From Antedon mediterranea (taxonomy: Eukaryota; Animalia; Echinodermata), in assembly GCF_964355755.1 (NCBI RefSeq), contig NC_092675.1, forward strand, positions 9,109,812-9,173,811: a stretch of 64,000 nt of DNA. The letters run 5' to 3'. This document shows positions 33,101 to 63,163 of this stretch, piece by piece. Every line of letters starts with the position of its first letter. Positions within the stretch are counted from its first letter, which is position 1. Below the pieces are notes generated by a model. That model worked only from the letters and a program-made list of their open reading frames with translations. It searched no databases and was not told where the DNA came from. The position numbers and the translations under genes are program-made.

Positions 33101-36100
33101 TTCTGCATCAGGTTGTCGGTCTTCATCACAATTATTTTCAGCAAATTGCACATAGATGTGATCATGAATAGCATCAGTAACTGAAATGTAGGAACATGAC
33201 CACACTGTAATGTTATTGTATACTGTATGCTTTTTGTAGTTAACCATTATGTGTAGTATTTTTAATATACTGAGTCTAAAGCAAAATTGTTAATATGGAA
33301 AATTAACCTACCGAGCCATAAATATTTGTTACTGAGTTATATTGTAACATGACCAATGCATTTAAAATATTAATTTTTTAGAAAATGGTCATGTACTGTA
33401 ATGCTTCATCAATGTCATCTAATGAATTGTAGTGTTATTTTAATAGTTTCCTAGAATACTTTTGTTACATTAAAATGTATTGTTTTTTTAAACACATTTT
33501 AATACTCTTCTCTTATTGTTAATGTTAGGTTACATTTCTGTATTTGTTCTGTAATTAACATTATGTAAAGGCAGTCTGAAACAAATTTAGTTAAAATGCT
33601 TTTTTATTCATTATGTATTAAAGTAATGGTGAGTATAGTATTCATTGTGTATTAAAGTAATGAGTATAGTATTCATTGTGTATTAAAGTAATGAGTATAG
33701 TATTCATTGTGTATTAAAGTAATGAATATAGTATTCATTGTGTATTAAAGTAATGAGTATAGTATTCACTGTGTATTAAAGTAATGAATATAGTATTCAT
33801 TGTGTATTAAAGTAATGAGTATAGTATTCACTGTGTATTAAAGTAATGAATATATTATTCATTGTGTATTAAAGTAATGAGTATAGATTCATTGTGTATT
33901 AAAGAAATGAGTATAGATTCATTGTGTATTAAAGAAATGAGTATAGTATTCATTGTGTATTAAAGTAATGAATATAGTATTCATTGTGTATTAAAGTAAT
34001 GAGATAGTATTCACTGTGTATTAAAGTAATGAATATAGTATTCATTGTGTATTAAAGTAATGAGTATAGTATTCATTGTGTATTAAAGTAATGAGTATAG
34101 TATTCATTGTGTATTAAAGTAACGAGTATAGTATTCATTGTGTATTAAAGTAACGAGTATAGTATTCATTGTGTATTAAAGTAATGAGTATAGTATTCAT
34201 TATGTATTAAAGTAATGAGTATAGTATTCATTGTGTATTATGTGTATAGTATTCATTGTGTATTAAAGTAGTGAGTATAGTATTCATTGTGTATTAAAGT
34301 AATGAGTATAGTATTCATTGTGTATCAAAGTAACGAGTATAGTATTCATTGTGTATTAAAGTAACGAGTATAGTATTCATTGTGTATTAAAGTAATGAGT
34401 ATAGTATTCATTGTGTATTAAAGTAATGAGTATAGTATTCATTTTTTTTTCCGAAATAAAAGATGAATGAATAAAGTAATGAGTATAATATTCATTGTGT
34501 ATTAAACGAGTATAGTATTTTGTAATCAAACAACTAGAATGTAAAATGACTGTTCATGGTATGTGTGCTTACCAAATTGTGATGTAAAGATGAAATTACG
34601 ACAATATAAAGTATTAGTTCAGTTACATTATAATCTTATTTAGTAGTCAAAAGTTTGTACACTTTTTAACACATTGTTTCAACTATTTATAGTATAATAC
34701 CTATTTTCAATTCATGTTCCTTCTTTTCCTTCTTTATTTATAGACAATGCAGGATTTGGGAAATCAAAAATTGTTGGAATTGCATTGAAGTTTAATTTTT
34801 TCTTCTTGCTGCATGTGAATTCACTTGGTTGAAAATGATTGGATTCTTCACCTATCTTCGTGATCTACAGTATAATAATAATTAACAATGATATTAATAA
34901 TATATATTTGGGAAATATGCCCAACTTTTTAAGTAGTTTATATCAGCATAACAAAATTAAAATAAATAATACATAATATAGTTTATTTTAATTTTTTTAT
35001 GCTGTCGGAAGTACGGCAACATTATTCACAACATCACCTTAAACATTTCAGTGTCAATCAAGGATTTACGAAAGTCGGAAAAGGTCTCGAAAAAATCTGA
35101 AAAAGCCGCAGATGATATAAACTACTTAAACAAAATATATACTTTATTAATAATTTAAAAAAACAAAATTGAACTATACATTGTAATATTAAAGTAGAAA
35201 TAATAGTACAGAAGAAATCTTATTGGTATATTATCCTATACTATATATTTCAACAATAAACTCCCTTTTTAAACTTTTAAATATAGGCTTTACAACCCTA
35301 TACCTACCGTATATTATGGGCATATAGGCCAAGCTAGTGTTAACAAAAACCTAGAATTAGGTACTTTTCAGTAATCACTCTAGCTTATTTTAAACATTTA
35401 ACAATATAAATTTACAATACAGTGTAGCCTAGCTAGGCATATTATTGAATACAGTATAGTTAGTTATATAGGGCCTGTCGCATACAAACTGTTTATAGGC
35501 CTATTATTTGTTTAGAATAGGCCAAAAGTATGCAATCCCTTTAAAACTTATAATGACTTATTATTATGAGAGCCTCTTAAAAAAATACACATTTGAGTTA
35601 ATACTCACCAAATTTTACCTTTTGTGAATTGAAAAATGACATTTCTGGACATTTTAATTGGCGATTATATGACAGTTAATCGCTGAACAATGGCTATGCG
35701 ACATGACTGCACCATATAGTGGTTACGAAGACTTTACGCGCGCCACATATGCCTTATCGCCTGCATACAAATGTAGCATACAATCAGTCAGTGCTAACTT
35801 CGTACCTATTTTTACAATTATATACGCCTATAGAAGTGTAATAACAAACATTTATATAAATATTCTTCCATTTTGACGCAAAAAATGAAATAAAATCCTA
35901 CTCTTTAATCTTATATTTTTTTGCTAAATTCATTATCTTCCAAAATTGTCATCTTCAAGTTTATTTTGATAACGTCATCTTACCCAAAAATTAGAACATG
36001 ATGTGGGTCCAATAATTTCACCTAAGCTACACTGTATACAGTATACTCAGGGAGGTCTTACACCTGCCTGGTATACTGTACATATTCTAAATGAAACATA

Positions 36101-39100
36101 ATAGGCACATATAGTAATATAAAAAAACACATGATCATTTTGGTGATTGCTATACAATAAGAGTGTCATTTCTGACCAACTAAAGGTGCCATTTAATCAT
36201 GAATTTTATGTGGGAGTACCATTTCCGACCATCTATGGGGTCTCATTTACCAAAATTCGCTCAAATATTTGGCGCCTAAAAAAATGTTAGACTCATTAAA
36301 AATGCAGTACAACAATCAGACATGTACTGTAAGAAGAGTAACCTACAGTGTGGTGTGGATAGTCTATCAGTTATTAAAATAAAATACAAAACAAAACTTT
36401 TTCAAATTGAGTTAAAATGTATTATTACCTTTCATCTGCTTTACAATATTCTTTGTAGGGTCAATCCAATGCTGTAAAACAACATAATTCAAATATCAAA
36501 ATCATACTTATCCTATGTAAAATTCTGTGCATATTTTGAGTCTATAAATATAAGATTGTTTTTTTAAAGCTACACTTTTAATTGTTCCGTTTTATAGAAG
36601 ACTTTATCGTTCAATCAATTATATACAGTATATAATTATATAACTAACTATGAAACTGAACAATTGTTATTATTAATGTTTTGTTCTGTTCCGATAAAAG
36701 TGGTACATAATTTATTGTCGAAACATGTTGCAAATATAATAGTTAACATAAATCTCCATTTGATTTCCTGCAGCAATTTTAATGTGAATTATGAACTGTT
36801 TTCTCAAAAACCAATCAACGAATCTTCATCTTCAATCTTCTTTATAATAAATAATAAATAACATTTATAAAGCGCAAGAGACAAAGGTTTCAAAGCGCTG
36901 TGTTTTCCAAGATCTGTGCAAGTAGTAGCGTGTGATAATGCTTCTCTGAAGAGATGAGTTTTGAGTTTAGTTTTAAATGTGATTACAGATTTTGATGAGC
37001 GTATTTCGAGGGGTAGAGTGTTCCAGAGTTTTGGGGCTGCGACAGCGAAAGCACGATCACCGTAAAACCGAGTTCTGGAAAGGGGTCCAGGTTTAAGAAG
37101 AAGTCTGCTGGATGAACGAAGCGTAGAGTTTGTTGACGGAGTAATGATGTCACATATGTAGGCTGGAGCACATCCGTTGATGGCCTTATATGTCAGCAAC
37201 AGGATTTTAAAACGAATGCGCTGATCTACAGGCAACCAGTGTAAGTCACGTAAAACGGGAGAAATATGTTCATGTCGTTTAGTGCCAGTGATAAGTCTTG
37301 CGGCGGAACTTTGGATTCGTTGAAGAGGAGACAGGTAAGAAGTTGGTAGGCCGTACAGAAGCGAGTTATTACAGTCCAGACGAGATGAAACGAAAGCATG
37401 AACAAGACGTTCAGTTGATGTTTTGTCAAGGTACAGTACTTACGAATCTGGCCGATCTGGTAAATTCCAAAGGAAGCACCACGGCAAACATTACGAATGT
37501 GTTCTTTTAAACCGAGGCTGTTGTCTAGTTGGACGCCAAGATTTCTGGCTGAGCTGGAGGTAGAGACACTAGTATCTCCGATATGGACCAAAGGAAATGA
37601 TGATGCCTCACGGAACTTTGAATGAAAATGGATCATTACAGTCTTGGAGTCTTTGAACATGAGTTTATTTTTAATGGCCCATGAGCGAACATCAGCGATG
37701 CATGATTCAAGGCTGTTAACAGATTCAGAATGATGTATAGGTTTCATGATTAAATATAGTTGAGTGTCATCTGCATAGATCATATGACGAACTTCCGGGT
37801 GGGAATCAATGATGTTGCTGAGTGGTCCAGTGTATAAGATGAAATCGAGTGGACCTTTTACGGATCCCTGCGGTACACCCCAGGGTAGAGCGAACTCATC
37901 AGACATCGAATCACCCACAATGATTGCTTGTCTACGATTCTCAAAATATGAAATAAACCATTTCAATGCGGTTCCGCTTATGCCGTATCTTTTCTGAAGA
38001 CGTTGAAATAATAAATCATGATTGATAGTGTCAAATGCGGCGGAGTAGTCGAGTAGAATAAGTACCACTTCATTACCTTTGTCTAAAGCAAGTAGTAGAT
38101 CGTTTGTAACACGCAATAAAGCGGTTTCAGTTAAGTGGAAGCGGCGGTAGGCTGATTGGACTTTTGAAAACAGGAAATGTTCATCCATATATGCTTTTAT
38201 CTGAGCAGTTGCAATTCTTTCCAAGACTTTGAAAAGGAAGGGAAGATTTGCTATTGGTCTATAATTTTGTAGGACGTTGGGAGTCGAGATTTTGCTTTTT
38301 CAACAGTGGCATAACGAGGGACAATTTAAATGCAGATGGTACAGTACCTGATGACAGCGACATGTTGACGATTTTAGTGATATGCGGTAGTAGAGAGTCA
38401 ATGCAGTTTTTTAGTAACCGTGTTGGAATTGGGTCAAGTCTACTGGACTTAGATGCGCTTTCAGCGATGACTTTGCGTACCGTATCTTCTGATGTTTGCT
38501 CAAATTCAGCGAAACTACTATTACATGAATCGTCGACGTTGACAGTTATTAGTATTCGTATTCATTCGTATTCATTCTGCTTTTATTCAATATTTCTCTT
38601 TGCAGTATATATAAAATAAAACTGAATTGCGAGAGATTTACATATAAAATTGGTACAAGCTTTCAAACATCAAAATTTACAACATTAAAAAGTTAAAAAA
38701 AATATTTTTAAAAAGGAGATATTACACATGGAAGAAACTGATGAAAGTACTTATTACTTATTATATTATTATTGTTGTGTTTATTTTGGATTATTAATTA
38801 GTCTACACAGTGCTGGGAAACATGAGTTGTTGAATCTTTTAGTATTGCCATATATTTCACTTTGCTTCTTCATTCCTAAGTATCCTGCCACACGTTTCGC
38901 CTCTCAATTTAGGAAGTGCGTTAGGAACGATTTTGTTAAGATTTTTAGCAAAATCAAGAAGAATATCTTCTCTTCTTTGATCTAAAAATTTAAGATTAAG
39001 TAGTTTAATTGCTTGATCATAGGATGCATATTTTTGTCCGAGAATTATTCTACATGCGCGTTTCTGTATAGATTCAAGCTCCGTGGATTGTGCTATGGTT

Positions 39101-42100
39101 AAGGCAGAGTGCCATACCGGACACGCATATTCAGTTACAGGTCTTATGTGGCTAATATACATTTGACGCAGATGGTTACAAGGCATTCCAAATCTTTTTA
39201 AACATGTCAACATATGTAATCTCTTACTGGCTCTATTAACAACATTGTGGATATGCATATTCCATTTCAGATCATTAGTGATCTGAACCCCAAGTAACTT
39301 TAAGCATTCAACATTGGTTATTTTTATATTATTTATCGTAAATGATTTAACAATGGGTTGAGATTTGGCAAAAGAAATGTTCATAAAGTTAGTTTTTTCA
39401 ATATTAATTATCATATTATTGTCTTTGGTCCATTGTGATAGTTCGTTTAATTGATCTTGAACATTAGGCGGGGTTTTCTTGTTGTGAACTTCACATATTG
39501 ACAAATCATCTACATACTTCCACCGATTTGGGAAGTCTCTAAGCGAATTGTTAACCATTACTTGGAAAATTAAGGGACCCAGTTTCGTCCCCTGAGGAAC
39601 TCCGCAAGTTATTCCTTGCCAGTTTGAAAAACCGCCATTGAGTTTCACTCTCTGTTTACGTTCGCTCAGAAAATCACAAATCCACGGCATCAATTCAGGT
39701 TGAACTCCAATATCAATTAACTTCTTGACAGCGATTGTATGATCAATTAGGTCAAACGCTTTACGAAAATCAACTGCAATAACCGTTGCTTCGTGTCCAG
39801 GTTTATCAAGACCTTGAAGTAAATAGTGTAACATTAGTGGAGTGTTTATGGAGTTAAGTTTCTTGCAAATCTTCAGAGTCTTTTCATTAAAGAAACAGCC
39901 AAACTGGTTTGCAAGATCCATTGAAGATGTGTGTTTTGGCAGAATAGGAGAAGAATCGACCGAGTACAGTTTACTTATGATGCGGAAAAGGTTCTTGTCA
40001 TCCGCATTAGCGATTTCATTGCGATGAAAATTGCATTTTGCTAGATCTAGCATATCTTTATATGCTTTGCATTCCAACTTGTACCACTGTTTGTCGATAT
40101 CCAAACCAGATTTCAACATTCTGCGTTCTGATCTCCGTTTGACGCACTTCGCTTCACGGAGTTCATTCGTGTACCATGGTGCCCGTGGTCTAATGGTGAC
40201 CAGTTTAGTTGTTAACGGAGCATGTTGGTCAAGGATGTACTGCAATACATTATTGTATTGGTCAGCGAGATCGGAGACATTATCTTCCGGTGCGCAGACG
40301 AGCGGGGAATTCATTATATCTTCCACAAAACAATTTAGATCAATGTTACGAAGTTTGCGGTAAGAGGTTGTCCGCGTTGGTTGTTTAGGATGTGATAAAT
40401 CCACCAAGCTGATGACAGCCATATGGTCGGATGGTAGTCCTTGTTTGACAGTGGTTTGTTTTATTAATTGTCGTTTTTCCGAGAGATTAGAAGGTCCAGT
40501 GTGTGCCCGCTAACGTGAGTGGGGCCTTGGACATGTTGATGAAGACAACTCGTGTCAAGCAGTTCATCAAATCGCTTGGTGTTGTTGTCCAAGAGGTCAT
40601 CTGTGTGAATATTGAAATCACCAACTATCAGAAGGTTTTTGGTGCAAGAGACTGATTCAAGAAGTGATGAGAATTCAGTGATGAACAAGTCAAAGGTAAG
40701 TTTGTTTTTGGTCGATGGTGGTGGTCTGTAAATTGCTATCAAGTTAATTGAAACATTTGGTGTTATTTGGAGTCCACGGTGCGAAATGATGCATATTCCA
40801 CCTCCGCGTCCACCTGTAGGGCGTGGCGCATGTGACACGTCCGCGATAAAGTGGTTGACAAATCCGGCAAAGAATGTTGAATGAACCGTGGATACGGCTG
40901 ACCGCGAAGGCTGACTGCACAGGAATGTGAGTAGAAAGGCAAACGAAACTGGCCTAGGAAAAACTGAACATTAGTTTCGCTAGTAGACCAACGATGTTAT
41001 CTTCACAAATACATACAACGGTCAGTAATAACCAGGAAAAGTTCGATGTGGCATTAAACACACACATTTCAGTATACAGAAACTGTAATTTTACAGAAAC
41101 TTGGAGAACAGATCAGACTGGCCGCTTGTATTGTAAGGCGCACACGTCAATCAATTATTGATTAAATTGAATCAAAATGTATTAAACTAAACACTTTTAT
41201 AGCTCACAACATGGATAGCAAATCCACCAGATCCTGCAATTCCATTTCAAACATGGGTATTAATAAATGGGGAATAATAGGTGACTTGCAGCCTACTGTA
41301 CTCGCACATGTGTGGACGACACATACCACTGAGCTTTCTTCTAAGGGTCCCTTCATGTCGAGTGCTGCAACCAAATCTTTTATTTCTATTATTAAAGTAT
41401 TTAAATAATTTCTGTGTATATTTTATGCGAATGACAATAAATAGAAGTAATTTTCTGATGAATGAAAGTGCACACAAGCCACATGTGTACACTGGACCTA
41501 CTGTACAGCCTTAATTCCTTATACGAGAACCATGGTGTCTTGAACTTGTGCCGATTGTATAGCTATGGTTTGCGGCAACCCTGCCTTAAACACTTGGCCA
41601 CACAACTGATGTTTAGGTCCATGTCAAGAATATATGTCCGTGGGCGTGCTATTTAATATCTTGCATGAAAGATATGGGTAAGTTAAAAGAATACACATTG
41701 TTCTTTTTTATGTGTGAAGTTATTAATTATTGATTTTTGTTTGGGATTTTATTGAAATACATTAGGAATGTTCTGTAAATATATTTAACTATTTACACCG
41801 AATAAATCAGAATGAATTCAAAATAGTAGGTGGTATCACGCTAACATAAAAACACGGCATGAAGTACTATACTTGGCTAAATTTAGTCAAATAATAAATA
41901 ATATAATACTAATAGGCACAAAAGAAACTCACGGTACCAATTATAAAAAAGTACCAATTCGATTTATAATTGATTTAAAATATAAATTATAAAAAAAAAA
42001 TAAGGTGAAACTGAAAAGCATAAATAAATGTTTCCAATAAATGTAAAAAGGTCAATTTCATTAGCATTTCATGATTTGACATTTAGCGAGTAGTGTTAAA

Positions 42101-46952: not shown

Positions 46953-47675
46953 TTTTTTAAATAAACCATCATCAGGTTAGAGAAATAGAATTGACGTTGT
47001 GTAGACCTAGGCCTACCGACAAGCAAAAATGATAAAAAGCCATAAAAAAAAACAATCTCAATATGTCTTAAACAGATGATATCCAAAACACAAATCGTCT
47101 TTTCTCGGGAGACACATCTTGTGTCACACCGCACGCGACCGTCAAAATAATATCGCACGATATTCTCTCGTCGTATGCAAATTAGATTAAGTTATTTGCA
47201 CGTTTAACCCTATATCTTTATTATTTTGTGGAAATGTGCATAGTTTATTTGGCCTACGTTGAAGTTCCGGTGGTCGTTGAAATAACCACTTGCTTTCGGT
47301 ATAGGAGAAGAAGGGATTTGGGAAAACATAAGGTAAGCGTTATATGGGCACCAGTCGTGCAGGTTATGAATATTAATGAGGAGGTACTATTTGAATATTC
47401 ATTTGTCAAAACCCAGCAGACCAAGACGATTCTCAGCCTGCAGCTTCTCGATTCCGTAGGCTTACACAGTACAGTTACTAATAAATTCTAGACTATGGGA
47501 TAGTTAACTATTATGTAACTATAATTAGCATAATGATGGTTTAGGGTTTAGTAATTTTTATTGATGACATTACGAAATATTGAATCCATAATTTACAATG
47601 GCGTGTATTTATGTAAAACAAATATAAATGACCCACCAATTGTTTTCACATTCAGAACTGCAGATATAGGACACA

Positions 47676-47852
47676 CAGGGAATAATTTCGCCAGTGTAGC
47701 ATAGCAAAAAGCTATACAAAACAACCTTTTTGCTACACGTATTTCTACAATTGTGTAGCAAAAAATACAATACAAAACTATGTTTCTTGACTAAAAAATC
47801 AGTTTGATTAGCAATTTTGCTAAACAAAATTTTCAAATGAAATTTTTCCCTG
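47676..47852. mobile_element. 177-bp MITE inserted in the left TIR, 5-bp TSD ACACA
   Basis: Absent from the matching position of the right TIR (~60212-60225). TIRs CAGGGAATAATTTC/GAAATTTTTCCCTG; same family as 15516-15690. Confidence 0.92.
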
Positions 47853-47919
47853 ACACATAATTACTTCGTACAAGAATGGTGCCCAAAACTATATTATGAG
47901 ATATATGTACACATTATTA

Positions 47920-48602
47920 AATGCACGGCTGGTGCCCATCTGCAGCACTGGTATAATATTAACTATTTAACATCAGAATCAGATAGATATAAAAATGCAC
48001 GGCTGGTGCCCATTGCAGCACTGGTGCCCATATAAACTCTTTAACATTAGATAGATATAAACATGCACGGCCGGTGCCCATCTGCAGCAATGGTGCCCAT
48101 TTTAACTCTTTAACATTGGATAGATATAAAAATGCACGACTGGTGCCCACCTGCAGCACTGGTGCCCGTATTAACTCTTTAACATTAGATAGATATAAAC
48201 ATGCACGGCTGGTGCCCATCTGCAGCAATGGTGCCCATTTTAACTCTTTAACATTGGATAGATATAAAAATGCACGACTGGTGCCCACCTGCAGCACTGG
48301 TGCCCGTATTAACTCTTTAACATTAGATAGATATAAACATGCACGGCTGGTGCCCATCTGCAGCACTGGTGCCCGTATTAACTCTTTAGCATTAGATAGA
48401 TATAAACATGCACGGATGGTGCCCATCTGCAGCACTGGTGCCCGTATATAACTCTTTAACATTATAGATATGAACATGCACGGATGGTGCCCATCTGCAG
48501 CACTGGTGCCCGTATTAACTCTTTAACATTAGATAGATATAAACATGCACAGCTGGTGCCCATCTGCAGCAATGGTGCCCATTTTAACTCTTTAACATTA
48601 GA
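47920..48602. repeat. 69-bp subterminal tandem array of the left TIR
   Basis: Unit AACATTAGATAGATATAAACATGCACGGCTGGTGCCCATCTGCAGCACTGGTGCCCGTATTAACTCTTT, ~9 copies, with alternating variants. Confidence 0.95.
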
Positions 48603-49081
48603 CTCTTTTTTTTTTAACTTTTAAACAATTGATAGATATACAAATGCATGTACACAGTATACTAGACTCATTCAATTTAATTAATTAAATTCTTTTAATT
48701 GAGACGTAATGTAAGTCCATATTTATAGAAAACAAAACAAGAAAGTACAAAATAAATGAAAGTTATAATAAAGCCTGTAAAACAAAAGGACTAGTAACAT
48801 ATTTCTTTCTCAAATTACATTTTAGAAATCGGAGAAACAACATTTGCAAATACACATATATATGCATATATTTATTAATATGTAGTTATGCAGGGTGGAG
48901 ATGGGTAAGGTGCCCGGCCTAAAATTCATTCACCCAGTTTGATTTCATTTGAAGGCCTTCCACCCAGCTGAATTTCAGCCTAGCACAGTTTAAGTACTTT
49001 TAGGCATATGTAAAATTGAGGTTCCACTGTACTGTATTTGTATATCATTAGTATTAATTTGATCAATAAGTAACTTGATAC

Positions 49082-52000
49082 TTATTCATATTGGGCTGTA
49101 CATATTGGACAAACGTAGCCACCTCGTGGTCTTGATTTTACATTAACACATTTAAAGTGACACCATCGGCCACATACATCGCACGCAACCCAATCTGCTG
49201 GCAACTTTGGCTTCATACAACCAACAATATCACACAGTCTCCGCTGTGATTTAGGCTTCAGGGAGGATTGCAAAAATTTTGCTAGAACATATTTCCTCAT
49301 GGCAAGTGCATGAGCCTGGCCCAGACTGGTTGGTAATATGTTCCGACTTAAAGCAAGAGCATTCTGAAAATAAATAAAAAATTCAGTACATTTCAAAATA
49401 TTTTATAATATTTATATTACATTTAATATATACATTAGAGCACATGAGTAGTGACTATTATTTCTTACCAACATGACAAATGCTCCGCAGGAACTTCCAT
49501 CACTTTGCTTTCCTGATAGTAATTGTGTGTCATGTATCCATTGATCTTTTAACTCACCAGTTGCATCACTACGACATCTCATGTATTCTCTGTAGTGAAC
49601 AAACCAAAAAGGTATGTACAGTGTTAAACTCAAACATTGAACTCTATGTGAATTTCTGTTTTTCTAAACAAATTAAAACACCAACCTGAACTTATTAATA
49701 TAGATTGAGTTGTCTCTTCCAGGCAAGGAGTCTAACAATGAAACCCTCATAGTGGGAACATAAGCAGCCAGGAGTATCCAATGATTTTGGTTAATGTTAA
49801 TTGGAAGAAAAATCCAAGAAAACTTGACCAACTTAACCTAATGTTTAAAAAATAACAATTTTAAATAATGATAAAAACCAAAATTGATTCAAGTGTGAAG
49901 GTTAGCTAACACTAGAGCATATTGAAGCTTATGTGGGTACTAAAAACAGTTAATAATTATTTACTAGGGACAATACTGTTTATGAAAATGCACTAATAAT
50001 AAACTAACCTTCTTGAACAACCAGGGGGCTAAACTATCCACACTCCATTGAACAGCTACATAAGATGGCATTATGAAAATGTGACCATGGTCTTCTGTGT
50101 TTGTTTCTCTTTTTAGCAAATGCAAGTAAGCATTTATTACCTAATTTTGGATAAACAAAATGATAAAAATATTGAATGGCTGATATTATTTTTCAAAAAT
50201 TTTCTTTTTAAAGCACTTATTTATGTGTATTTATTTGAGGCTATGAAATTAAATATCATAACAGAGAATCAGTACTATTGTTGCATAGTAACTGATAAAA
50301 TGAGTTTATAGTTAACAGTATAGTAATCAATTCTTATTAAAGTAAATTTTTCTTAGAAATGATCCTTTTTGTCATATGTGTAGAAAAATTAAAACAAGTT
50401 TTGTTTAGGTGTGTTAAAGGACTTACTTTGTCATTTAACCAATTTGGATGAACTAAACACTTGAAGTCATCATGCTCTATTACATCTCCTCCAACATGAT
50501 ACCTCACTTTCTTGCTTTTAGGTACATCAACATTTTTTTCGGATGTTAGCTCAACTAAAAGTGTGTCTGTATTAAATGAAACAATGTTTCTATAACAGTC
50601 ATAATAAGAACATTCAGTAACCGTTAACAGTAAAAATTAAAAATTATTAATTATTATAACATTATATTAATAACATTATATCATCAACACTTTTTTTAAT
50701 CTTACTCAACTGGGAGTATGTCTGTAATACTGTGAAATAAACATAACATTTTAACAACAACAACAAACAAATCAATATCATAAAAACTTGCCTTTCTTGT
50801 TATTGGAAAGAAATGTTTGGCTAGCAAAAGAAATCGCTTTCTCTTTCTTCTGTGGTGATATTTTAGGCTTGTATGAATCAACTTCAGGTGCTGTAAATTG
50901 TAAATGTTATATATGTAAAATATCTCTTCGTGAATTAATATACTAAAAAGATTAAAAAAGGATGAAGGTAATTTCTCACTACATACAGATCTTTTTTAAT
51001 GTACTTTAAAATTAACAAAATAAAAACATGCCTCTCTTATTATCAATCTATGCCTGAAAGTTTGATCACAATTAAAATATTAATATATAAATAAATCACT
51101 ACTATTTCTTTTTCCAAAACTCTCCTACTTTTGTAGGAAAGGCCTCTATACCATTATGATTTACACAAAAAATATAGCAGAATTAATATTTAATTTAACT
51201 TGTGTATACTTTATATTTTTTTTCCGTATTTATTATTATACAATGTGAAAAGTCATAGTCATAGTCATATAGTCATATATACTTTATTGTCCATTTAAAA
51301 AAACAGAAATGTGATTTGAAAACTGGCAAAATACAAAGAAAGGTATTTGACAATAATATTATTATTTATTGGGTGCAAGGCTTTACCTGAATGCACAGGT
51401 GATTGCATTTCCGTATCTTGTTCAGAAGGTGAACAGGGAGCTGGAAATCATAAAAATAAAATGTGACATACACATAATAAGAGTATCATCTTGATTTTGA
51501 ATACATTTCCATACAATTTGAGTACTATATAATCAAATATTACAAAGTAATACAGATGGCAGATGAAAATACTGTATAACAGGGCTCAAATTTTACTTTT
51601 GTATCAACTACCAAACATTTGCTAGTTGTAAAAATCTAACTAGCAAATTGAGCAACCCAACTAGCAAGTAAGATAAGGAAAATTAATCTATCTCTGGTCC
51701 CTCTACACATTCATAAAATGGTTTGCTTCAAATATACATACATACATACATTCAACATAAAATAGCTGACTAAATATAGAAATCTTTTTTTGTAATAAAT
51801 ACTTAATAGTAAGTTATATAATGTGATTTATGATAAGTACCTTTAAAATATCCATCAATCTTTGTGTTTACTAAATTCACTTTTCTGAAACCTCTTCTGG
51901 TCATTTTCTTTTTTTTCTTAATGACAGGTAATTCTCGATGTTGAGGACTCTTTCTCTTTCGCTCAAACAGTTTTGGCTCTGCATCAGGAATTAAGCCTTC

Positions 52001-55000
52001 TTCATTGCTTAAATGCTGCCTGATATACTCTACGGTGTTTAGTATTTTCTTTTCCATTTTCCTTAAGATTTCTTCTTCTTTGCACAGATAAGTCATGTCT
52101 CGTAGGAGAAGTAGTTTCTCTCTACAAGAAGCAGCTACTTGTTTTGCAAAAGAAGGTCTTAGAGGCAAGCTGCTATCATCAGGGGGTAAATGACACTCTT
52201 CTATTTCATGTTCTAGAATTACCTTTTCAGGTTCTCCTAGAAAGGTTCCAACTAACTTATCAAGCGTGTGAAGTGGAGATTCACGAAGACTTTCGGGAAG
52301 ACTTTCCCAAGTCACATCTTCTATGTAAGTGAGAATTGAAAAAATATGTTTACATGGCATTCTCAACTTCAACCAATCTATACACTCACACACTGACATT
52401 GCACTCGGCGACATGTCTACTAAGTAACTTGATTGTCCTTGCAGACTTTGACTTTTCACCTGTAAATAAAAGAATATTAAACACAATTTAAAATTGTTTC
52501 TTTTTCTATATTTTCCCATAAATATTAATATTTTTACAATTTTAAATACTTATGTAGTTTTTGAAAGCAAGTTCTATCCAAACTTTTTAGCAACTGACAT
52601 CTATTCCATTTTTTTATAAAATAATCATATATAGAATATCATAAATTATTTTTATTTAATAAATCAATAAATTAAATACAAAATAGATAGTTGTGGGTTT
52701 ATTAATCATTTAAATGCAAAGTTGCAATCAAATAGAAGTAATCTGCAGATCATATAAAAACCACTCTTTTACCTTAAATTTATCCTTATCTATTCTTGTG
52801 ATGTCCTTTGATAATATTTCTTGAGATGACTCGAAACGTGATAAGCAATGGCTAAGAAAAGCAGGAGGCCTGTTTTGAAGATAGTGCGGAACCTCTTGTT
52901 TGTATGTCCGACCATAAGTATCATCAGCCTTTACATTCGCTGTGATGTATCTGATAACAAAAAATTATGTATGAACTGTACCATTAACTTTTAAATAATA
53001 TTTATGCTAACCAATAAAAAATGTAATTAACCTTACGGTAGATGAACATTTCTGTACAATAAACTATTCTTAGAGCCGCAAGAAATGAACCCAAATCCCT
53101 TTACTTTAATTGAGGGGTTTTAGTACTGTAAAAAACAAAACACAATTAACACAACGGTACCAAAATTTATTAAAATATTTTAAAATATGACTTTATACCG
53201 TACTTCATTTTTCTGCTAGGCAGGTATTCATTGTGAAGAGCTGATATCATGCCAGAAATTGAAAATGAGGCTCGGTCTACTAAAAACTTGTGTTTAAATA
53301 CTCGATTTTGCCGCTCAAGACCATTGTTGGTATGTGCCTGTAGACCTTGGTCTTTTCGGTAGGACCATGCCCAGAGCTAAAAGTAAAAATTTAAGTAAAT
53401 TATCATCTATAGAGTTTATGCAATATATTTTCTTTAATAAATTAGAAAATTACTCACCTCGCAATGTGGCAGCCATTTTTTGGATAACCATTGCTGAAGT
53501 CGGCAGTTTTTTTTCCAAACCTCCGACATTTTTAATGTGTTTACAGCTTTTTTGTACGCAAGAACCGTTGTAGCATGAGCACAGCGTCGTAAGTGAGCAA
53601 GAATCTGGTCCTTGGACTTTGTAACGCCATTATCAGTCTTGCTCACCCAACGGATCCAGGCTTGCTCCCGATGAAAGTCGCATATGTAAGTTTTTGTTTC
53701 TAGTGATAAAGGAAAGTGTAAATAAATCTCTGAAAACAATGAAAGTTCTAGCATACAATTGTAGAAAAATAATTAAAAAAAAATCAATATAACAAACAAT
53801 AAATTACCAGGAAACAGTTCCTTGATAGCTGAGAGCTCCCTTTCACAGAAGTCTGTTAAGAAATTGGTGGGGTTCCAGCTAAGATTTGCCTGTTGCATAA
53901 ATTGTTTGATTGTAGACAGACCCTCAAGAATGGCTGCTTTGGTTTCCATCTGAACAACAAATTCACCAACCACACTGTAACCAACATTTGTTTTTACTGC
54001 CAAAAAGAACAATGGCAAGGCATATCGTGTGGTCTTATAGGTAGCATCAAGAAAACACAAGTTTGTTCCATATCTAAAGTAACATAAATATAATAAATAA
54101 TAAAAGAACAGTGAAACCATAAAAAATATGAGGGTGATGTAAAACATAATAATTGCCTTTATTGTCATCTTGGTTGTCAAAATATATCTGTCCCAAAGCT
54201 TCAATCACAAGAAAACAAATAACCTACCGGTTTAAAAGATGCCTCTGAAATTCTGTTTGATGAGCGAAAAAGAAAGCAGATGAACTTTGCGATGATTCAG
54301 CAGGAATCAATTCATCATCATCTTCATTAACATAAAACTCCTTTGTGGGCTCAGCAGAAGCAAGCCTTAAAAAGTAGTTATCTAATGGATGTTGCTTCTG
54401 CCACTCCTCCATTTGTTGTTTCAGGTTCTCCTGATCTAGCTTTGAATACCTAAAAAAGGTTAGAACATTGGTACATAACTTAAAAGTAACAACATTTTTC
54501 GGTTTTATAAATGAATAAGTTTATAGGAAACAAAAAGGTACTGTACAGTAATAGGTAGCAAACCAAAATGTGCACCCTGGTAGACACAGCAGAGATTTTC
54601 AATAATTCCCCATAAATGTTTTCTACTGTATATATATATTTTGTAAGAGTAGAGCAACAATATAATTATGGTTTTATAAGCTGTACATATAAAAAACAAA
54701 CCTTAATGCCATTAAAGAAGTGTAAATATGGTTTCTCAATGTCTGGTCCTGCGGGTAGTAGGCTGTATTTGTCACAGCAGGACGAGTTTCTGCATCCGGA
54801 AACAATACTGTTTCCACATATATTTTTAAATGCCTCCTCATCTCCTCTGTACCGTTTACACCATGGCTGACCAATTCATGAATTTTGTCCTTTATTCCTT
54901 TATTTATTGGATTTAAAAATCCAGCAAGCTAAAAGAGTTTTAATAGTTTAGGAATCTCATATAAAAACCATTATAGTTTAAGTAAACATATTATAAACTT

Positions 55001-58000
55001 TAATTGTTTTAAAATAATTTACTTTTCACAATTTCACAATAAATGATCCATTCATCAAAATTAAGGACTTCAGAACATCACTGCTAATCCTGGTGTTGTA
55101 GTACGCCAAATGAGAACATAATGTTTTGTACATCTGCTGTGCCTTATATGAACTTACAAAAATTGAAAGTTTAAGTACTTAAACAAAATTATTTTGTTGT
55201 TGTTTTTTGTTAAACTGAGAATCAGCTTTTAAAAATAAATGCATTGCTATTAACAAATCTATTTACCGTGCCAATTTTGTGAAAACTGTTATGTTCCTGA
55301 TCTGATGGTAGAGATACATAGATTCTTCTCTCTGCCTTTAGGTCTGCACCACTTTTAACAGCCTTCCTAAGCGCTTGACTTTTCTCGTCACAAACACACC
55401 TGTTCTGTGAAACTGACTATAAGAAGTAACAACAAAGAAATCAATCACTTATAAATAATCATAACATTATGATTTTTATTTATGTTTACCTAACACAGTG
55501 ATTAAAAAACTTAAAAATAACAATAATAATAATAAAAATATTAATAATACAAATAATAATAACAACATAGACATAAAATAATTATTATTTTTGTTTTAAA
55601 GAAATTAATAATTACTAGATGGTACGCTCGCTTCGCTCGCGTACCATCTAGGTCGTGCCCACAGATGGTTCTCGAATACATAGTAATTTCAGCATAAAAA
55701 AACGGTGATTTATGTAGCCAACTAAAATTAGTACCCTGGCAATTACTTGAGTAAACAAAACCAATTTGTGTTTTGTAATGTAACATTAGGGTTGAAGGAT
55801 GGTAAGAGGGTGGGTGCAAAGAGGAACCATTTTTTAAATATATTCTTTATCCGTAACGACATATTTGTTTTTATGTTTTATAAATAATAAACCACTAAAC
55901 ATTTGCGATACTTTATTGAAACTGTCACTGTCATAGTCGATTGAAATAGTTAAGTACATGTAATTGTAACAATACACCACTATGACTTTTATATTCTTTG
56001 TAATTATTAATAATACTATTAAGAAGCAACTGTCAGTATTAAAGTTTAATTATGTGTTTAAACAGTACCACCACACTCGTAAAAAGAAATTGTGCTTTAA
56101 ATGGGACACAAATGGTTTATGTATTTAATGTAAAAGGTTTTTAATTTATCCCCGAAGGGCACGTAAATTTACCGTAAATTTGCCTACTTGTGTTATACCA
56201 AATGTGGGGAGAGATTGGAATGTTCCATTCATCGCCAAGCAATCCTTTTGTATAAACGCATATTTTAAATCTATCAAAATAGTATTTTTTAAAGAAAATC
56301 GGCCTGTCTTCAACATTATGATGCTGTACTCGAGCTGTTCAACCGGTTTTCAGCTATTAAAAACAATTATCCTAGGAGGAGATAGGAAAATGCAAAGCAT
56401 CCTCGTATTATTGTGTGCGGGTATTTTTTAAGACGGATATCCATTAGACAGTGTATTCCACGATCGGAAAACACCCCTATTTGGGGCAAATCGTTGAACC
56501 TAAATTCGTTTTAATTGTCAATAACTAATTATCTAACTCAATTTAATTAGTAAACAGGGTTACATCAGGTGGTTAAAATCAGTAACGAAAGTACGAACCA
56601 ACTTTATATACCATCGACTAAAAATTCTAGAAATAACGCACAATTTACCGAATTTTGCCCTTACATAAATTTATATATAGATTTTAAAATAGAAAATTTG
56701 AAGTTTAATTTAATTAATGCAAATAAAAAAATACAAAGTAATTGCTTTTTAAAATGCATTTATGTTTACCGTAAATAAATAGAAAATAAAATAAATAGAC
56801 AATGCAGCTATTACAAACATTAAAATCTCAATGTCAGATTTAAAGTAAGGTACTGTAAACAAAATTGTAAAACTGTGAATTGTTAATAGTATTTTAATTT
56901 AAATTTACCTTAAATTCTGGAAATCTAATAATTTCCTTTAATTTTAGTTTTGCTGGGCAGCCTTTCTTTTTGGAACATTGCATCCTCCTTCTTCTCTTCT
57001 TTCCTGTTGGATGGTCACTCTATTATCAAGATTAACAAAATACAGATTGATAATTATATATCGATATTATAAAAATGAAATACTTCATTAGGGGTCAGAA
57101 TTAATTACTTACAGCATATGTATACACTATATTTAAAAATCATAAAATGTACTGTATGGATACCTTGAGTTCATTTTCACGGTTATCTGCTTCTTTTTCT
57201 TGAGCACATCTGTGCTTATTTCGTCCATACATACACCCTAACGTATATGATGCTGTTATCATGAAAGGAACTCCATCAAAATCTATACCATCTTTCCTGC
57301 CTGAAAATCTTACCAAGTGTGATGCAATACCTTTGGAATGTAATATAGAAAAGGCATGTTAAGTATTAGTATTTTGTATTCCTAAATTACAAAGGGTTGT
57401 CAATTCAGTGAAATGTTTGTCTAAATATTCGTACTGTACCTTCCTAAGTTTGCCTGACAAGATAGCCAACCCTAGGCCTATCTATAGATAATTTTTTTTA
57501 AACCATATAAACATAAAAAAAAGTTGTACATCTATCCGATTTTGCACACAATAAGAAAGTTAGTTAATTATTAGGTTTTGGTATCTTAGGGAGGATGGGG
57601 TGGGGTGTGACAGCAAACAAAACACACTGATTTTAATATAACAGTAGGCCTCTAGGCCTAGGCCTATATTATATACTTTTTTTCCCCAATCATTAGGGTG
57701 CTAGGGAGAGAACAATACAACTTTTCTTGATATGTGACATTTTTTGAATTGAAAGTTTCATATAAAATTGAAAATTCACTAGGCCTAGATCTAGTAGTAC
57801 TAGGTAGTAGGTCTATCCTAGTCTGGTCCCCTTTTTACAGTAGGCCTAGGATAGTAGATCATGCAAGGTATTGTCGAAATAAATCAAAATGCTCATTCAA
57901 GGTATTGTCGTAATAAATCAAAATGCTCATTCATATTGTGTCGAAATATATCCCAACATGATGCCATAAATGTATATTTATGGTTTACTTTCTTAAACAA

Positions 58001-58356
58001 CGAATAAAGGGGCTAGGCTAACCTGGTGCAGATGAGGTATTGATAAGACCAATTTCGCCAATTTCAACGTTGTCCTCCTGCTCTTCTACGCCGTTGGTAG
58101 TACAATAGGCATTGGCCTGAGGCGGAAGCGGAGAAAACTTTATTTTTCCGAAGTCTCCCTTCTTGTTTCCAACGAAATGTAATGACTTCGCATTTTCGAA
58201 TACGTTTCGTAGCTCTTCACAATCTGATAAACCACAAACCCATCCTTTTAAATAGTTTTCAGACGGAGAATTTAGAAATTTTGCCCACAATGGCAAACAA
58301 TTTGTGTCAACTGACATGTTTTCAGACTCACACAATACACACGCCACACATTTCAT
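49082..58356 (-). CDS. MULE transposase fusion protein: CARF-like N-terminus + MULE DDE + SWIM + Ulp1/C48 protease + PHD finger; 19 exons, ~1220 aa
   Basis: Exons 58356-58023, 57300-57164, 57019-56909, 55416-55267, 54928-54702, 54449-54228, 54073-53808, 53699-53458, 53376-53204, 52950-52773, 52459-51841, 51440-51387, 50890-50792 (GC donor), 50729-50706, 50566-50427, 50140-50009, 49837-49686, 49589-49469, 49363-49082. Phases are consistent (3663 nt) and no internal stop was seen. Motifs: FLDATYKT, LTDFCERE, CDFH, TNNGLERQN (DDE + CxxH); CECIDWLKLRMPCKH (SWIM); WLNDKVIN, NHWILL, LLDSL, QSDGSSCG (Ulp1); CDIVGC...WVACDVCGRWCHFKC...CPIC (PHD). Confidence 0.9.
55615..56681 (-). mobile_element. Non-autonomous Helitron-like element in transposase intron 3
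   Basis: The minus strand begins A|TCTATATATAA and ends CTAG|T; a 3' hairpin CTAGATGGTACGC-(11 nt)-GCGTACCATCTAG lies at 55615-55651. Confidence 0.65.
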
Positions 58357-58416
58357 AACTTCCCGCGAATCGCTGTATCAGGTTCCAATAATGAATATTC
58401 AACACGTCTGCTGTAA

Positions 58417-58693
58417 AGCCTAGGTTCCATAAAATCGCTACACGCGACAGAGCGTAGCGATTCTATTGAAACGCTAGAATTTATCGGGGATCTAGTACGC
58501 GAGAGCGCTAAATATTCTTTGGTACGCGTATTATTATACGATTCATCGCCGACAAAATCGGCAAAGTAAAGTTGAACATGTTGAACTTTGCTGATTTAAC
58601 TGCGATTGCGTCGGGGACATCTGCGCGTGTAGCGATTTTAATGGAAACGCGGTAGCGATGGTGTGACGTGTAGCGATTTTATGGAAACCGGCT
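58417..58693. mobile_element. Harbinger-like MITE just upstream of the transposase ATG
   Basis: TIRs AGCCTAGGTTCCATAAAATCGCTACACG / CGTGTAGCGATTTTATGGAAACCGGCT, with TAA on both flanks. Confidence 0.7.
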
Positions 58694-58980
58694 TAAATGC
58701 GCGCCAGTGCTGCGCAGTGTTGGCAACCGTCACGTCACGCGCATTTCATGCGCAGTGGAATTTTTTAGTGAGCTATCTGCTCACGTTCGGCGCACACTTG
58801 AGAGGAAAATGGCACGAGTGCCAATAAATATTAAACACGATAGATATTTTCCTCAGCGGCACGCATGGCTGATTCCTCATGAATTCCCCAGCGCACACTG
58901 TGAGGCTAGCCAAGTGTTACTCGTGCCTGTTGGCTCAGCCGGAAGCTTTAGTGTGCGCCGGGCTCAATATAATAAGGGCA

Positions 58981-60142
58981 GTTAATACGGGCACCAGTAC
59001 AGCCATGCATGTTTATATCTATCTAATGTTAAAGAGTTAATACGGGCACCAGTGCTGCAGATGGGCACCAGCCGTGCATGTTTATATCTGTTATATCTGT
59101 TATGCGCGATTTGAACGATTTGCGCAATTTGAAATTGCGCAAAAAATTTCTTGCGCACTTTGAATTGAAACATGTGTTTCAAATTGCGCAAGCAACGTAT
59201 TAAATTGCGCAAGTAATCTGCAAATTGCGCAAGGTTTTTCGACAGATTGTGAAATCATGCACACCCATATTTTTTTAGTAATTTCTAAGAGTGATTCAAA
59301 ATTAAAGATAATATCGCATTTCCTTACCCTCCCGGGAGCCTCCCTCCCGAATTTTTTTTTCCGAATAAAAAAAATCTCGAATTCCCAATGGTTCTATAAA
59401 ATACCATATTCACACATAATATGAGGAGAAGGCATAAATAAATACCAATAGTAATATAATAATTTCAATTGAAATATCAGTACTAATGACGATTAATAAG
59501 ACTAATAACGATTGCATGTTTATATCTATCTAATGTTAAAGAGTTAATACGGGCACCAGTGCTGCAGGTGGGCACCAGTCGTGCATTTTTATATCTATCC
59601 AATGTTAAAGAGTTAAAATGGGCACCATTGCTGCAGATGGGCACCAGCCGTGCATGTTTATATCTATCTAATGTTAAAGAGTTAATACGGGCACCAGTGC
59701 TGCAGGTGGGCACCAGTCGTGCATTTTTATATCTATCCAATGTTAAAGAGTTAAAACGGGCACCATTGCTGCAGATGGGCACCAGCCGTGCATGTTTATA
59801 TCTATCTAATGTTAAAGAGTTAATACGGGCACCAGTGCTGCAGATGGGCACCAGCCGTGCATGGTTATATCTATCCAATGTTAAAGAGTTAAAATGGGCA
59901 CCATTGCTGCAGATGGGCACCAGCCGTGCATGTTTATATCTATCTAATGTTAAAGAGTTAATACGGGCACCAGTGCTGCAGATGGGCACCAGCCGTGCAT
60001 GGTTATATCTATCTAATGTTAAAAAGTTAATACGGGCACCAGTGCTGCAGGTGGGCACCAGCCGTGCATTTTTATATCTATCTGATTCTGATGTTAAATA
60101 GTTAATATTATACCAGTGCTGCAGATGGGCACCAGCCGTGCA
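58981..60142. repeat. 69-bp subterminal tandem array of the right TIR, interrupted at ~59091-59512
   Basis: Reverse-complement copies of the 47920-48602 unit at 58981-59090 and 59513-60142. Confidence 0.93.
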
Positions 60143-60859
60143 TTTAATAATGTGTACATATATCTCATAATATAGTTTATATGGGCACCATTCTTGTACG
60201 AAGTAACATATTTATGTGTCCTATATCTGCAGTTCTGAATGTGAAAACAATTGGTGGGTCATTTATATTTGTTTTACATAAATACACGCCATCGTAAATT
60301 ATGGATTCAATGTTTCGTAATGTCATCAATAAAAATTACTAGTTAAAACCCTAAACCATCATTATGCTAATTATAGTTACGTAATAGTTAATAACTATCC
60401 CATAGTCTAGAATTTATTAGTAACTGTAAGCCTACGGAATCGAAGCTGCAGGCTGAATCGTCTTGGTCTGCTGGGTTTTGATAAATGAATATTCAAATAG
60501 TACCTCCTCATTAATATTCATAACCTGCACGACTGGTGCCCATATAACGCTTACCGAAAACATAAACGGTAATCTCTTCTTCCTCGGTCACATTTGCCTC
60601 ATTTTAATATATGTCACGCGCTAGGCTGAACAACACTCTCAAGAATAATAAACAGTTGATTAGGTCATACTATAAAACTGGGATTTAAGTTATAAGCAAA
60701 AATATCCTCCAGGGTGGATTTAAAATGCAGTTTTAAAACGCAGCCTGTGTTAAAAATTTGGGATTTTTCAGATTCCATTTTGGCCCCCATTATTGGTTCA
60801 AAGAAGGCGAATAATTTTTCAATTCCCACTTCTAGTGAAAATTTTAGTATGGTTTTTTT

Positions 60860-63163
60860 GGTTCTAGGACACCTACCCCCTAGACAGTTACCCCCCGGAT
60901 GTTTACCACCCGGACAACTACCCCCTTAGGACAACTACCCCCCGGACAACTACCCCCCGGACAACTACCCTCTTAGGACAACTACCCCCTTAGGATAACA
61001 ACCCCCCGGACAACTACCCCCCGGACAACCACCCCCTTAGGACAACCACCCCCTTAGGATAACTACCCCCCGGGTAACTACCCCCCGGGTAACTACCCCC
61101 CGGGTAACTACCCCCGGTCAACTAACCCCCGGTCATCATCTGTTTTTTACGGGTGTTTCGAAACTAGAGACCCGAGACCAGAGACCTGACACGAGACCCA
61201 ATACGAAAAGGGTCTCCCTTTTCGTATATTAGGGTCTCCCTTTTCGTATAGTGTGGTCTCTCTTTTCGTATAGTGGGGTCTCCCTTTTCTTAACTTATAG
61301 TGGGTCTCCCTTTTCGTATATTTGGGTCTCCCATTTTGTATATTTGGGTCTCCCTTTTCGTATATTTGGGTCTCCCTTTTCGTATATTTAGGTCTCCCCT
61401 TTCGTATATTAGGGTCTCCATTTTCGTATAGTGGGGTCTCCCTTTTCGTATAGTGGGGTCTCCCTTTTCGTACGTGAGTCTCCCTTTTCGTATATATAGG
61501 CAAAGAATATATATCACAAGAATGAGTATTCCGCGATTTTTGCATGAGAAATTTGTAACAGAGAGCTCCAGAGAGTGATGCCCGCCCTCATAAGGGCGGA
61601 TGTATACATACTAAATAAGACTTGATTTAATAGATATTATACATGTCACATTAAATAGAATTATGATAATATATTTTGCAATTGTAAACTATTTTATAAT
61701 ACATATTTATTAACAAACTAGTGTACATTCACTTTTACAGACAATTATTTACTAACATGCTAAGTTAGTTCACAAAAAAAGCCTAACACAGCAACACCAA
61801 AATCAACGAATCGTTACTCAGCACGGCCTATTCTATACCATTGCCGTGTACTACTCTACGCCCGGTAAATTAAGTATTGTTTTTATGATATAAATTAGTA
61901 TAAAATACATGTTATTAATAGGACAAAATGTTAAATATCATTAACATTTATTTGTTTTACCAGAAACAAGTTAAATATAGGAATATTATTAAACTATCGT
62001 TCGTGAAAACGCGTAAACACCAACACGCCCGGTCACGCTATCGTAGCGCCCGGTTGATAAAGCAAACTGTTTATACGGCAGATTTTACTAAATAAATTGC
62101 ATAAAACGAACAATTAAATATCCAAATAGTATTTAATATGATGTTGGCATGTAGTTGATAACATTTTTTATCATGAAAATACTACCGGTGGTCTAGCCTT
62201 TGATTATTGAAACCGTCACAAAAAGTTGTATACATCCCAGATACATCCACACTTATGGTGGCGCCCTACCACATGGACAATATTACTGTTACAGGGAAAA
62301 TCGCGGATTACTCATTCTTGTGATATATATTCTTTGATATAGGTCTCCCTTTTCGTATTGGGTCTCGGGTCTCTGGTCTCTGGTCTCGGGTCTCTAGTTT
62401 CGAAACACCCGTTTTTAACCGATTATTCTGTTTAACAGCACGCTAGACCCTAGATGTGCTAGATTTAAAGTACCGTATTTATTGAAAAAACGGCCTGGGC
62501 TGTTTATTGTTTAGGTGGTTTTTAGGTGGACATTTATTGGAAGAAAGTTGTTTATTCAATGGGAGGGGGTATAATCTAATGGAAATAGACGCCGATTATT
62601 CCATATGATGTTTCATGGGAGTGACATGGTCACCGTTTATTTGAGGGGAATTTATTTAAAGATTGCCGTTTATTCGGTGAGTGAACATTGAGGTCAAATA
62701 TCAAAAGTGATATTATTCTTCAAGTGTACAAAAATACATATATGACAAATTTTAGACAAAAATTAATTCTTTTAAGACCAGTGGTTATCGAAGCATTGTC
62801 CTGACCCAAAAATTATTATTATTATTAGCGAACCCAGTCTTTACAGTAAATACAGGGAGTATAATACGTTCGACTATCCTATGATCATGTGTGACAATCT
62901 TCAGTTTATATACCAGGCTATATTTATGTTCAATCTTTTACTTTTGTTTACAATAATGAATAGTAATTCGTCAAAGTAACGAATTAAAATATAGTTAAAT
63001 ATATAGGTATATTAGTTATTCCTATTATACACTGTTGCAGAGTCAGGTTGTTGAATGGTCTGGGTGGTAGTTGTCCGTCCGGGGGGTAGTTGTTCTAAAG
63101 GGATAGTTGTCTGGGTGGTAGTTGTCCAGGGGTTAGTTGTCCTACGGAGGTAGTTGTCCTAAA
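60860..63163. mobile_element. Non-autonomous DNA transposon with inverted GGACAACTACCCCC subterminal microrepeats
   Basis: (GGACAACTACCCCC)n at 60866-61133 and inverted (GGGTAGTTGTCC)n at 63062-63160. The right terminus is degenerate and no TSD was resolved. Confidence 0.6.
61151..62410. mobile_element. Non-autonomous MULE/Foldback-like element nested in the preceding element
   Basis: TIRs GGGTGTTTCGAAACTAGAGACCCGAGACCAGAGACC; second inverted block 61501-61540 vs 62297-62337; 9-bp flanks GTTTTTTAC/GTTTTTAAC; internal 21-22-bp array (GGGTCTCCCTTTTCGTATA..) at 61209-61497. Confidence 0.8.

Follow-up and report, generated by a model that had tools for sequence, protein, structure and literature searches.

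A Mutator-type transposase of Antedon mediterranea shares its N-terminal domain with CARF, suggesting a likely transposon origin of this transcription factor

Results

In a 64,000-nucleotide stretch of the genome of the echinoderm Antedon mediterranea (NCBI RefSeq assembly GCF_964355755.1, contig NC_092675.1, positions 9,109,812 to 9,173,811 of the forward strand; the window in the following), we found a mobile element of 13,224 bp at 47332-60555 that encodes a predicted transposase with a domain shared with the transcription factor CARF at its front end. The element is bounded by two identical 10-bp flanks, and this perfect target-site duplication (TSD) lies inside the 8-11 bp range of the Mutator/MULE superfamily. 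Its terminal inverted repeats (TIRs) are about 1.2 kb each, show about 93% identity over 352 and 695 nt, have perfect tips and contain 9-10 copies each of a 69-bp unit. Inverted repeats and TSD together bear out an earlier note on this DNA, which had described a TIR/TSD-bounded element. Judged from its sequence, the element is a Mutator (MULE) transposon with Foldback-like ends.

The transposase gene was modelled from the sequence and comprises 18 exons on the minus strand, from 58356 to 49082, giving 1,222 codons without a stop. An AG acceptor is present at all 17 introns, together with a GT donor at 16 and a GC donor at one. The predicted order of the domains is PF15299, MULE DDE core, SWIM, Ulp1 protease and PHD. 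The features are as follows (aa, amino acids; E, expectation value).

47322..47331: left copy of the 10-bp TSD, same as 60556-60565
47332..48602: left (3') TIR, 9.8 copies of the 69-bp unit at 47921-48602, 177-bp insertion at 47676-47852
49082..49363, minus strand: exon 18, aa 1130-1222 and stop, PHD finger
49469..50566, minus strand: exons 14-17, Ulp1/C48 protease with H1057, D1074 and C1123
50792..51440, minus strand: exons 12-13, linker; the GC donor ends exon 13
51841..52459, minus strand: exon 11, SWIM zinc finger (E 0.021, below cut-off), then a helical segment
52773..54073, minus strand: exons 7-10, MULE catalytic core with D413 (54048), D478 (53853), CxxH 499/502, W507 and E594 (53316)
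54228..54449, minus strand: exon 6, transposase linker, absent from CARF
54702..54928, minus strand: exon 5, aa 255-329, the three helices of the CARF-type domain, helix-turn-helix-like
55267..55416, minus strand: exon 4, aa 205-254, last strand with His246/His250
56909..57019, minus strand: exon 3, aa 168-204, basic insert and Cys188
57164..57330, minus strand: exon 2, aa 112-167, FDGVPF hairpin and Cys144
58023..58356, minus strand: exon 1, aa 1-111, weakly aligned, probably supplies the fold with its N-terminal helix and strand 1
59000..60555: right (5') TIR, 9.1 copies of the 69-bp unit at 59513-60143, detached copy near 59000
60556..60565: right copy of the 10-bp TSD

Six of the exon borders at the 3' end were set by comparison with P0002, an NCBI protein of Antedon mediterranea that is identical to aa 284-1222. 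Pfam recognizes in P0002 the MULE core (PF10551, E 1.7e-11), a ZSWIM1/3 RNaseH-like domain, Peptidase_C48 (E 5.4e-12) and a PHD finger, and the protease region matches yeast Ulp1 with E 6e-12. The element keeps D413, D478, C499, H502, W507 and E594, and all six positions are kept in 13 of the 20 full cores compared. The 5' exons are backed by P0001 from another crinoid (61.5% identity over aa 135-334) and by the sea-urchin protein P0154, the sister of the element in our tree, in which the PF15299 domain, MULE core and SWIM stand in a single chain. Exon 1 matches three relatives and scores 1.3 bits against the family profile. No splice joints were found in three contig sets, which says nothing either way on expression of the gene.

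Six peptides that the earlier note had aligned with motifs of human CARF are all present in the minus-strand frame, in the order given there, from 57280 to 54725: at aa 129 (57280-57215), 185 (56968-56912), 235 (55326-55306), 269 (54886-54857), 284 (54841-54800) and 311 (54760-54725). An exon-by-exon Pfam scan matched PF15299 (ALS2CR8, the CARF family, 235 positions) with exon 2 (positions 6-58, E 1.2e-7), exon 3 (54-91, E 1.7e-8), exon 4 (101-147, E 8.4e-4) and exon 5 (168-230, E 1e-11). Three of these four exons pass the curated cut-off of 28.9 bits singly, and jointly they span positions 6-230 of 235. The similarity had been expected across exons 2-6; it holds for exons 2-5, while exon 6 gave no match.

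As stand-ins for CARF we used P0179 (Ptychodera flava), P0180 (Glandiceps talaboti) and P0181, which came from a search with the ctenophore protein P0134, whose cluster-mates are named Bolinopsis microptera. All three lack a transposase domain. We take P0179 to be a true CARF orthologue because its predicted fold matches two chordate clusters named calcium-responsive transcription factor (template modelling score, TM, 0.90 and 0.68) and it scores 213 bits in Pfam. The motifs of P0179-P0181 are nearly identical to those that the earlier note had given for human CARF. Pfenning et al. 2010 (PMC2877716) reported CARF from 35 vertebrates and also from amphioxus and Nematostella. The description of CARF as a vertebrate factor does not survive, as orthologues occur in hemichordates and the ctenophore protein groups with them (100/96).

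The spliced element protein matches P0179 directly (BLASTP E 1.9e-13, 22% identity, aa 107-326), with E 1e-13 to 7e-18 across P0179-P0181. In phmmer the match to P0179 reaches 40.2 bits, and the best of 500 shuffles 3.5. The significant profile similarity on which the proposed link to CARF hinged is present: hhalign aligns the element-lineage profile with the CARF orthologues at 99.4% and E 3.9e-21 over 194 columns, aa 111-330 corresponding to 182-398 of P0179. Pairwise comparison with the orthologues gave no CARF similarity beyond aa 335. These alignments establish aa 111-330 of the element as homologous to the CARF orthologues, and nothing beyond.

A HMMER search with the domain returned 740 clusters at 50% identity, and all 148 newly listed proteins that were scanned match PF15299. 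Among the best 150 of the 740, 76 have at least 100 aa past the domain; in 40 of these 76 the chain runs on into the linker or core of a transposase, and in 38 as far as the catalytic MULE region. The other 36 do not continue into linker or core, and among them may be both host genes and broken gene models. PF15299 is thus commonly the N-terminus of a transposase. Species names were assigned to 30 of the relatives, and transposase-type proteins occur in Diadema (5 near-copies), Apostichopus, Pecten, Mizuhopecten, Pinctada, Lottia and Patella among echinoderms and molluscs, as well as in Lingula, Branchiostoma, Procambarus and the fishes Channa and Merluccius. In the ESM Atlas, cnidarian-led and mollusc-led clusters join PF15299 with MULE, and therefore the pairing was already implicit in databases. 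In the trees, the distances of the domain correlate with those of the core (Mantel rho 0.50 for 18 rows, 0.54 for 15 rows without near-copies, p about 0.002), which indicates that the pairing is old and fits a long shared history of the two parts.

Three fish proteins annotated as calcium-responsive transcription factor, P0147, P0185 and P0122, were rejected as CARF, being transposase-type by domain content or tree position. P0147 (Channa argus) and P0185 (Merluccius polli) are MULE transposases, and P0147 keeps D, D, C, H, W and E. Related genes that lack the core were noted in Coregonus, there in several copies, and in Amia and Lampris. We considered that coreless relatives could be deletion products in which the DNA-binding domain meets the post-SWIM helix, and rejected this, since the helix is found in 5 of 38 (E<1e-3) and in no CARF. 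P0008 and P0193 (Asterias rubens, A. amurensis) are coreless, belong to the element's own lineage (100/98) and have the domain joined directly to the post-SWIM helix; kept in two sea stars, they are candidates for a second domestication. Fusions of the PF15299 domain to unrelated host domains were seen in P0064/P0187, P0104 (NTF2), P0003 (Nudix), P0089/P0117 (Myb/SANT) and P0101 (GNAT); the NTF2 fusion is common to two Asterias species and one more protein. They may be real captures or gene-model errors. Finally, P0051/P0069 (Lytechinus), P0044 (Procambarus) and P0063 (Lottia) are full-length with altered catalytic or CxxH residues, and the occurrence of the P0051 cluster in two Lytechinus species suggests domesticated whole transposases.

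For the phylogeny a maximum-likelihood tree was calculated from 49 of 107 full-domain rows (CARF, transposase-linked proteins and 12 chosen others), with 6 near-copies dropped. P0179-P0181 form one clade (100/99), which the ctenophore protein joins at 100/96. It is by this tree position alone that we call the ctenophore protein a putative orthologue, and its place in the CARF clade would date the event to the base of animals. The nearest sampled lineage to CARF is the fish-borne group, with weak support of 89/73. The window protein, with its full MULE core, lies outside the CARF clade, and a branch with 99/98 sets CARF apart from it. The claim that the element is a mobile relative of the CARF progenitor stands in so far as it is a related MULE, but the tree places it as a distant relative and not as the closest lineage. 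Neither of the two consensus sequences of the CARF-binding site CaRE has a match in either TIR; the comparison of TIR motifs with these sites that the earlier note had proposed gave no agreement, as would be expected for a distant lineage. Searches of viral and metagenome contigs, of phages and of plasmids yielded no relatives, and the root was for this reason analysed without an outgroup. Midpoint and minimal ancestor deviation (MAD) roots place CARF nested among the transposases, with the CARF stem ranking 13 of 95.

An 80-row alignment shows four near-invariant Cys/His residues, corresponding to C144, C188, H246 and H250 of the element (47-48 of 49 rows). An AlphaFold2 model of a CARF orthologue, with a predicted local distance difference test score (pLDDT) of 88, has a helix, a beta-sheet region with the ligands and then three helices. 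Helix 30-44 precedes strand 48-52, and C89 and C113, the counterparts of C144 and C188, flank a basic insert. According to Babu et al. 2006 (PMC1702500), MULE-borne WRKY-GCM1 domains have a helix ahead of strand 1 and a basic insert that separates the cysteines, and the orthologue model agrees with both. Among the seven nearest non-PF15299 folds in the Atlas, four are MULE/FAR1/ZSWIM3_N (TM 0.44-0.52, weak), two are unnamed fungal folds and one is C2H2. The three C-terminal helices resemble homeodomain and helix-turn-helix folds including those of the TnsB, IstA, Tc3, Mu and Mos1 transposases, with middling Z scores of 5-6. The shared region is predicted to be a DNA-binding module in two parts, first a Cys2His2 zinc finger of the insert-containing WRKY-GCM1/FAR1 type and then a bundle resembling a helix-turn-helix; the assignment to the WRKY-GCM1-type fold is likely. 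An earlier AlphaFold model from a 6-row alignment reached pLDDT 58, and the Foldseek search with that model was empty.

Further repeats lie within and around the element. The 177-bp repeat at 47,676-47,852 is present in the left TIR only and has a partner copy at 15,516-15,690 (97.7% identical). A high-copy repeat occupies about 58,400-58,950, and intron 3 holds a nested, very high-copy repeat at 55,620-56,680, with a depth more than 1,000-fold above background in DNA runs. Near 55,615-55,650 there is a hairpin ending in CTAG, which we take to resemble a Helitron-type end. Elsewhere in the window we found tandem arrays at 6,028-8,307, 29,631-30,491, 33,605-34,530 and 60,900-61,500 with units of about 36, 85, 31-32, 15 and 22 bp; the last two (15- and 22-bp units) sit just beyond the 5' end of the element. 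Frames resembling non-long-terminal-repeat reverse-transcriptase/endonuclease genes are located at 27,564-28,862 (plus strand) and 36,807-40,970 (minus strand), and a frame at the start of the window (3-719, plus strand) gave no Pfam match.

Discussion

The homology between the transposase N-terminus and CARF is real and well supported, and a transposon origin of this orphan human factor is likely. The explanation that we consider clearly the most probable is that CARF descends from the front end of a Mutator-type transposase that was tamed early in animal evolution. The earlier proposal that CARF derives from this class of MULE is supported in part: it is the best reading of the data, with the direction deduced from fold and domain context; on these two grounds we regard the step from transposon to host as having a good probability. 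In the element, the N-terminal module would bind the 69-bp repeats of the TIRs and the DDE core would cut and paste the element with a 10-bp stagger, while the Ulp1 domain may remove SUMO and the PHD domain may read chromatin. The ancestral copy on the way to CARF would have lost everything from the linker onward, and CARF would have gained low-complexity flanks serving as activation regions. It would have become fixed as a single host gene before the hemichordates, and probably the ctenophores, split from the other animals. A wider proposal, to which we lean only slightly, is that CARF, an orphan neuronal regulator of BDNF, is a zinc-finger plus helix-turn-helix Mutator front end tamed once before the ctenophores split, and that the parent is a MULE clade without a name that spans the animals and is still found intact in echinoderms, molluscs, amphioxus and bony fish, an independent source of further host genes and widely mis-annotated as CARF-like.

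Several observations weigh against a descent from a Mutator transposase. The histidines of the domain are spaced HxxH or HxxxH and not HxH, and Phe or Ile takes the position of the strand-4 Trp of the WRKY-GCM1 fold. FAR1 is the nearest named Atlas cluster by features, but its value of 0.75 lies below the Atlas lead threshold, and a Pfam match to FAR1 appears in 1 of 80 rows (E 0.017). Foldseek with the pLDDT 88 model gave nothing at E<=0.001 and no solved WRKY, GCM or FLYWCH structure; the VIA top 50 contain none either, almost all matches coming from the helical part with Z at most 6.1, and no solved structure matches the domain or the catalytic core by sequence. Of the GCM/WRKY-like zinc fold proposed earlier, the helix and the basic insert agree, and His spacing and strand-4 Trp are not an exact fit. 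On the gene side, the annotation of P0002 begins at aa 284 and omits most of the CARF-type region, the 5' splices being predicted. Row sampling for the tree was biased to the element query and not to CARF, and no vertebrate CARF sequence was among the results of three word-based searches and the best 150 of 740 HMMER clusters. A non-reversible root model with 20 rows does not discriminate among the roots: all 37 fall within 4 log units of one another, and a root on the CARF stem is not rejected, with an approximately unbiased p (p-AU) of 0.13. In the phylogeny of CARF and MULE N-termini that the earlier note had called for, the nested position is given by midpoint and MAD.

Such a stem root would suit the opposite direction, in which an early animal MULE captured the DNA-binding exons of an old host CARF in place of its own domain, and all PF15299-MULEs descend from that capture. 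CARF is indeed old, given ctenophore P0134, its orthologues are one clade, and MULEs do capture host pieces, the window element likely carrying a captured Ulp1 and PHD. We nevertheless hold this scenario to be unlikely: PF15299 occupies the exact place of the native WRKY-GCM1 domain of other MULEs (PMC1702500), the capture must have exchanged the zinc finger together with the helical domain behind it, and the MAD and midpoint roots are not on the CARF stem. As the nearest named non-CARF folds are MULE/FAR1 N-termini, CARF would even then still trace to a MULE. Less probable still is that the window gene is a tamed CARF-like host paralogue among incidental repeats. Its 18 exons, the nested repeats in intron 3 and the left TIR, which show some age, and a depth over the coding part that stays close to background in DNA runs, a hint of low copy number although depth is not equal to copy number, would agree with this. 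The perfect 10-bp TSD, the 93%-identical TIRs with perfect tips and the complete DDE/CxxH/W set speak for an element instead, as do the 5 near-copies of a close relative in Diadema and the position of the gene outside the CARF clade. That the likeness is convergent, or caused by drift of the Pfam profile from invertebrate transposases, we give practically no weight. Identity is only 22-29% and the Pfam model may contain transposase members, but the direct pairwise and profile-profile matches to CARF were obtained without Pfam, are collinear over 220 aa and share four metal ligands, which refutes it.

With descent from a Mutator transposase, CARF would gain an origin and a structural class, although Pfenning et al. 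2010 (PMC2877716) stated that it resembles none of the known transcription-factor families. The same study describes a conserved DNA-binding domain and, at mouse aa 292-472, a second conserved region with no known function. We predict that the four named Cys/His residues bind zinc and are needed for DNA binding by CARF, and that the second region is a helix-turn-helix that also touches DNA. If this is true, CARF would be one more of the few human factors that come from Mutator transposases, and a very ancient one. Many gene calls named CARF-like would be transposases, which is a warning for annotation. The PF15299 finding also indicates MULE transposases in teleost fish, while the 2019 survey reports no convincing vertebrate MULE (Dupeyron 2019, PMC6446971).

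Among the matches listed in the full-text literature, with subscription journals and Repbase outside this scope, we found no published link between CARF and a transposase. The available texts of Babu et al. 2006 (PMC1702500), Dupeyron 2019 (PMC6446971) and Cosby 2020 do not mention CARF, nor does that of the Codebook main text (10.1101/2024.11.11.622097). Rehavkus and Foldback-type MULEs (PMC6446971; Tm1, PMC3169594; Muta1, PMC5225508) have long TIRs with internal tandem repeats like our element, and the PHD finger and the minisatellite near the TIR of Rehavkus are both present here. The element differs in its 10-bp instead of 9-bp TSD, its TIRs of about 1.2 kb, its 69-bp unit, its PF15299 instead of a FLYWCH domain and its echinoderm host. 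We rejected an assignment to Rehavkus on the TSD length, and one to Phantom because no scanned exon matches FLYWCH. The WRKY-GCM1 MULEs and the FAR1/FHY3, Aft1/Aft2, Rbf1 and GCM proteins derived from them (PMC1702500) share with the element the order of zinc finger, transposase, SWIM and optional protease or PHD, as well as the N-terminal helix and the basic insert that parts the cysteines. These transposases are described with additional SWIM, protease or PHD domains, their transposase link was deduced to be ancestral, and transitions from transposase to factor are recurrent (PMC1702500). Compared to them, the element has extra inserts between strands 1-2 and 3-4, a wider His spacing and no strand-4 Trp. 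CARF itself has the same domain as aa 111-330 of the element with the same four Cys/His, but is, unlike the element, a host gene present in one copy that has no linker, DDE core, SWIM, Ulp1 or PHD. The Codebook study of human transposase-derived DNA-binding domains (10.1101/2024.11.11.622097) describes host factors that arose from a transposase domain, with FLYWCH1 as the Mutator case. The domestication of transposases into factors is in itself well known, and CARF would be a new case of this known process.

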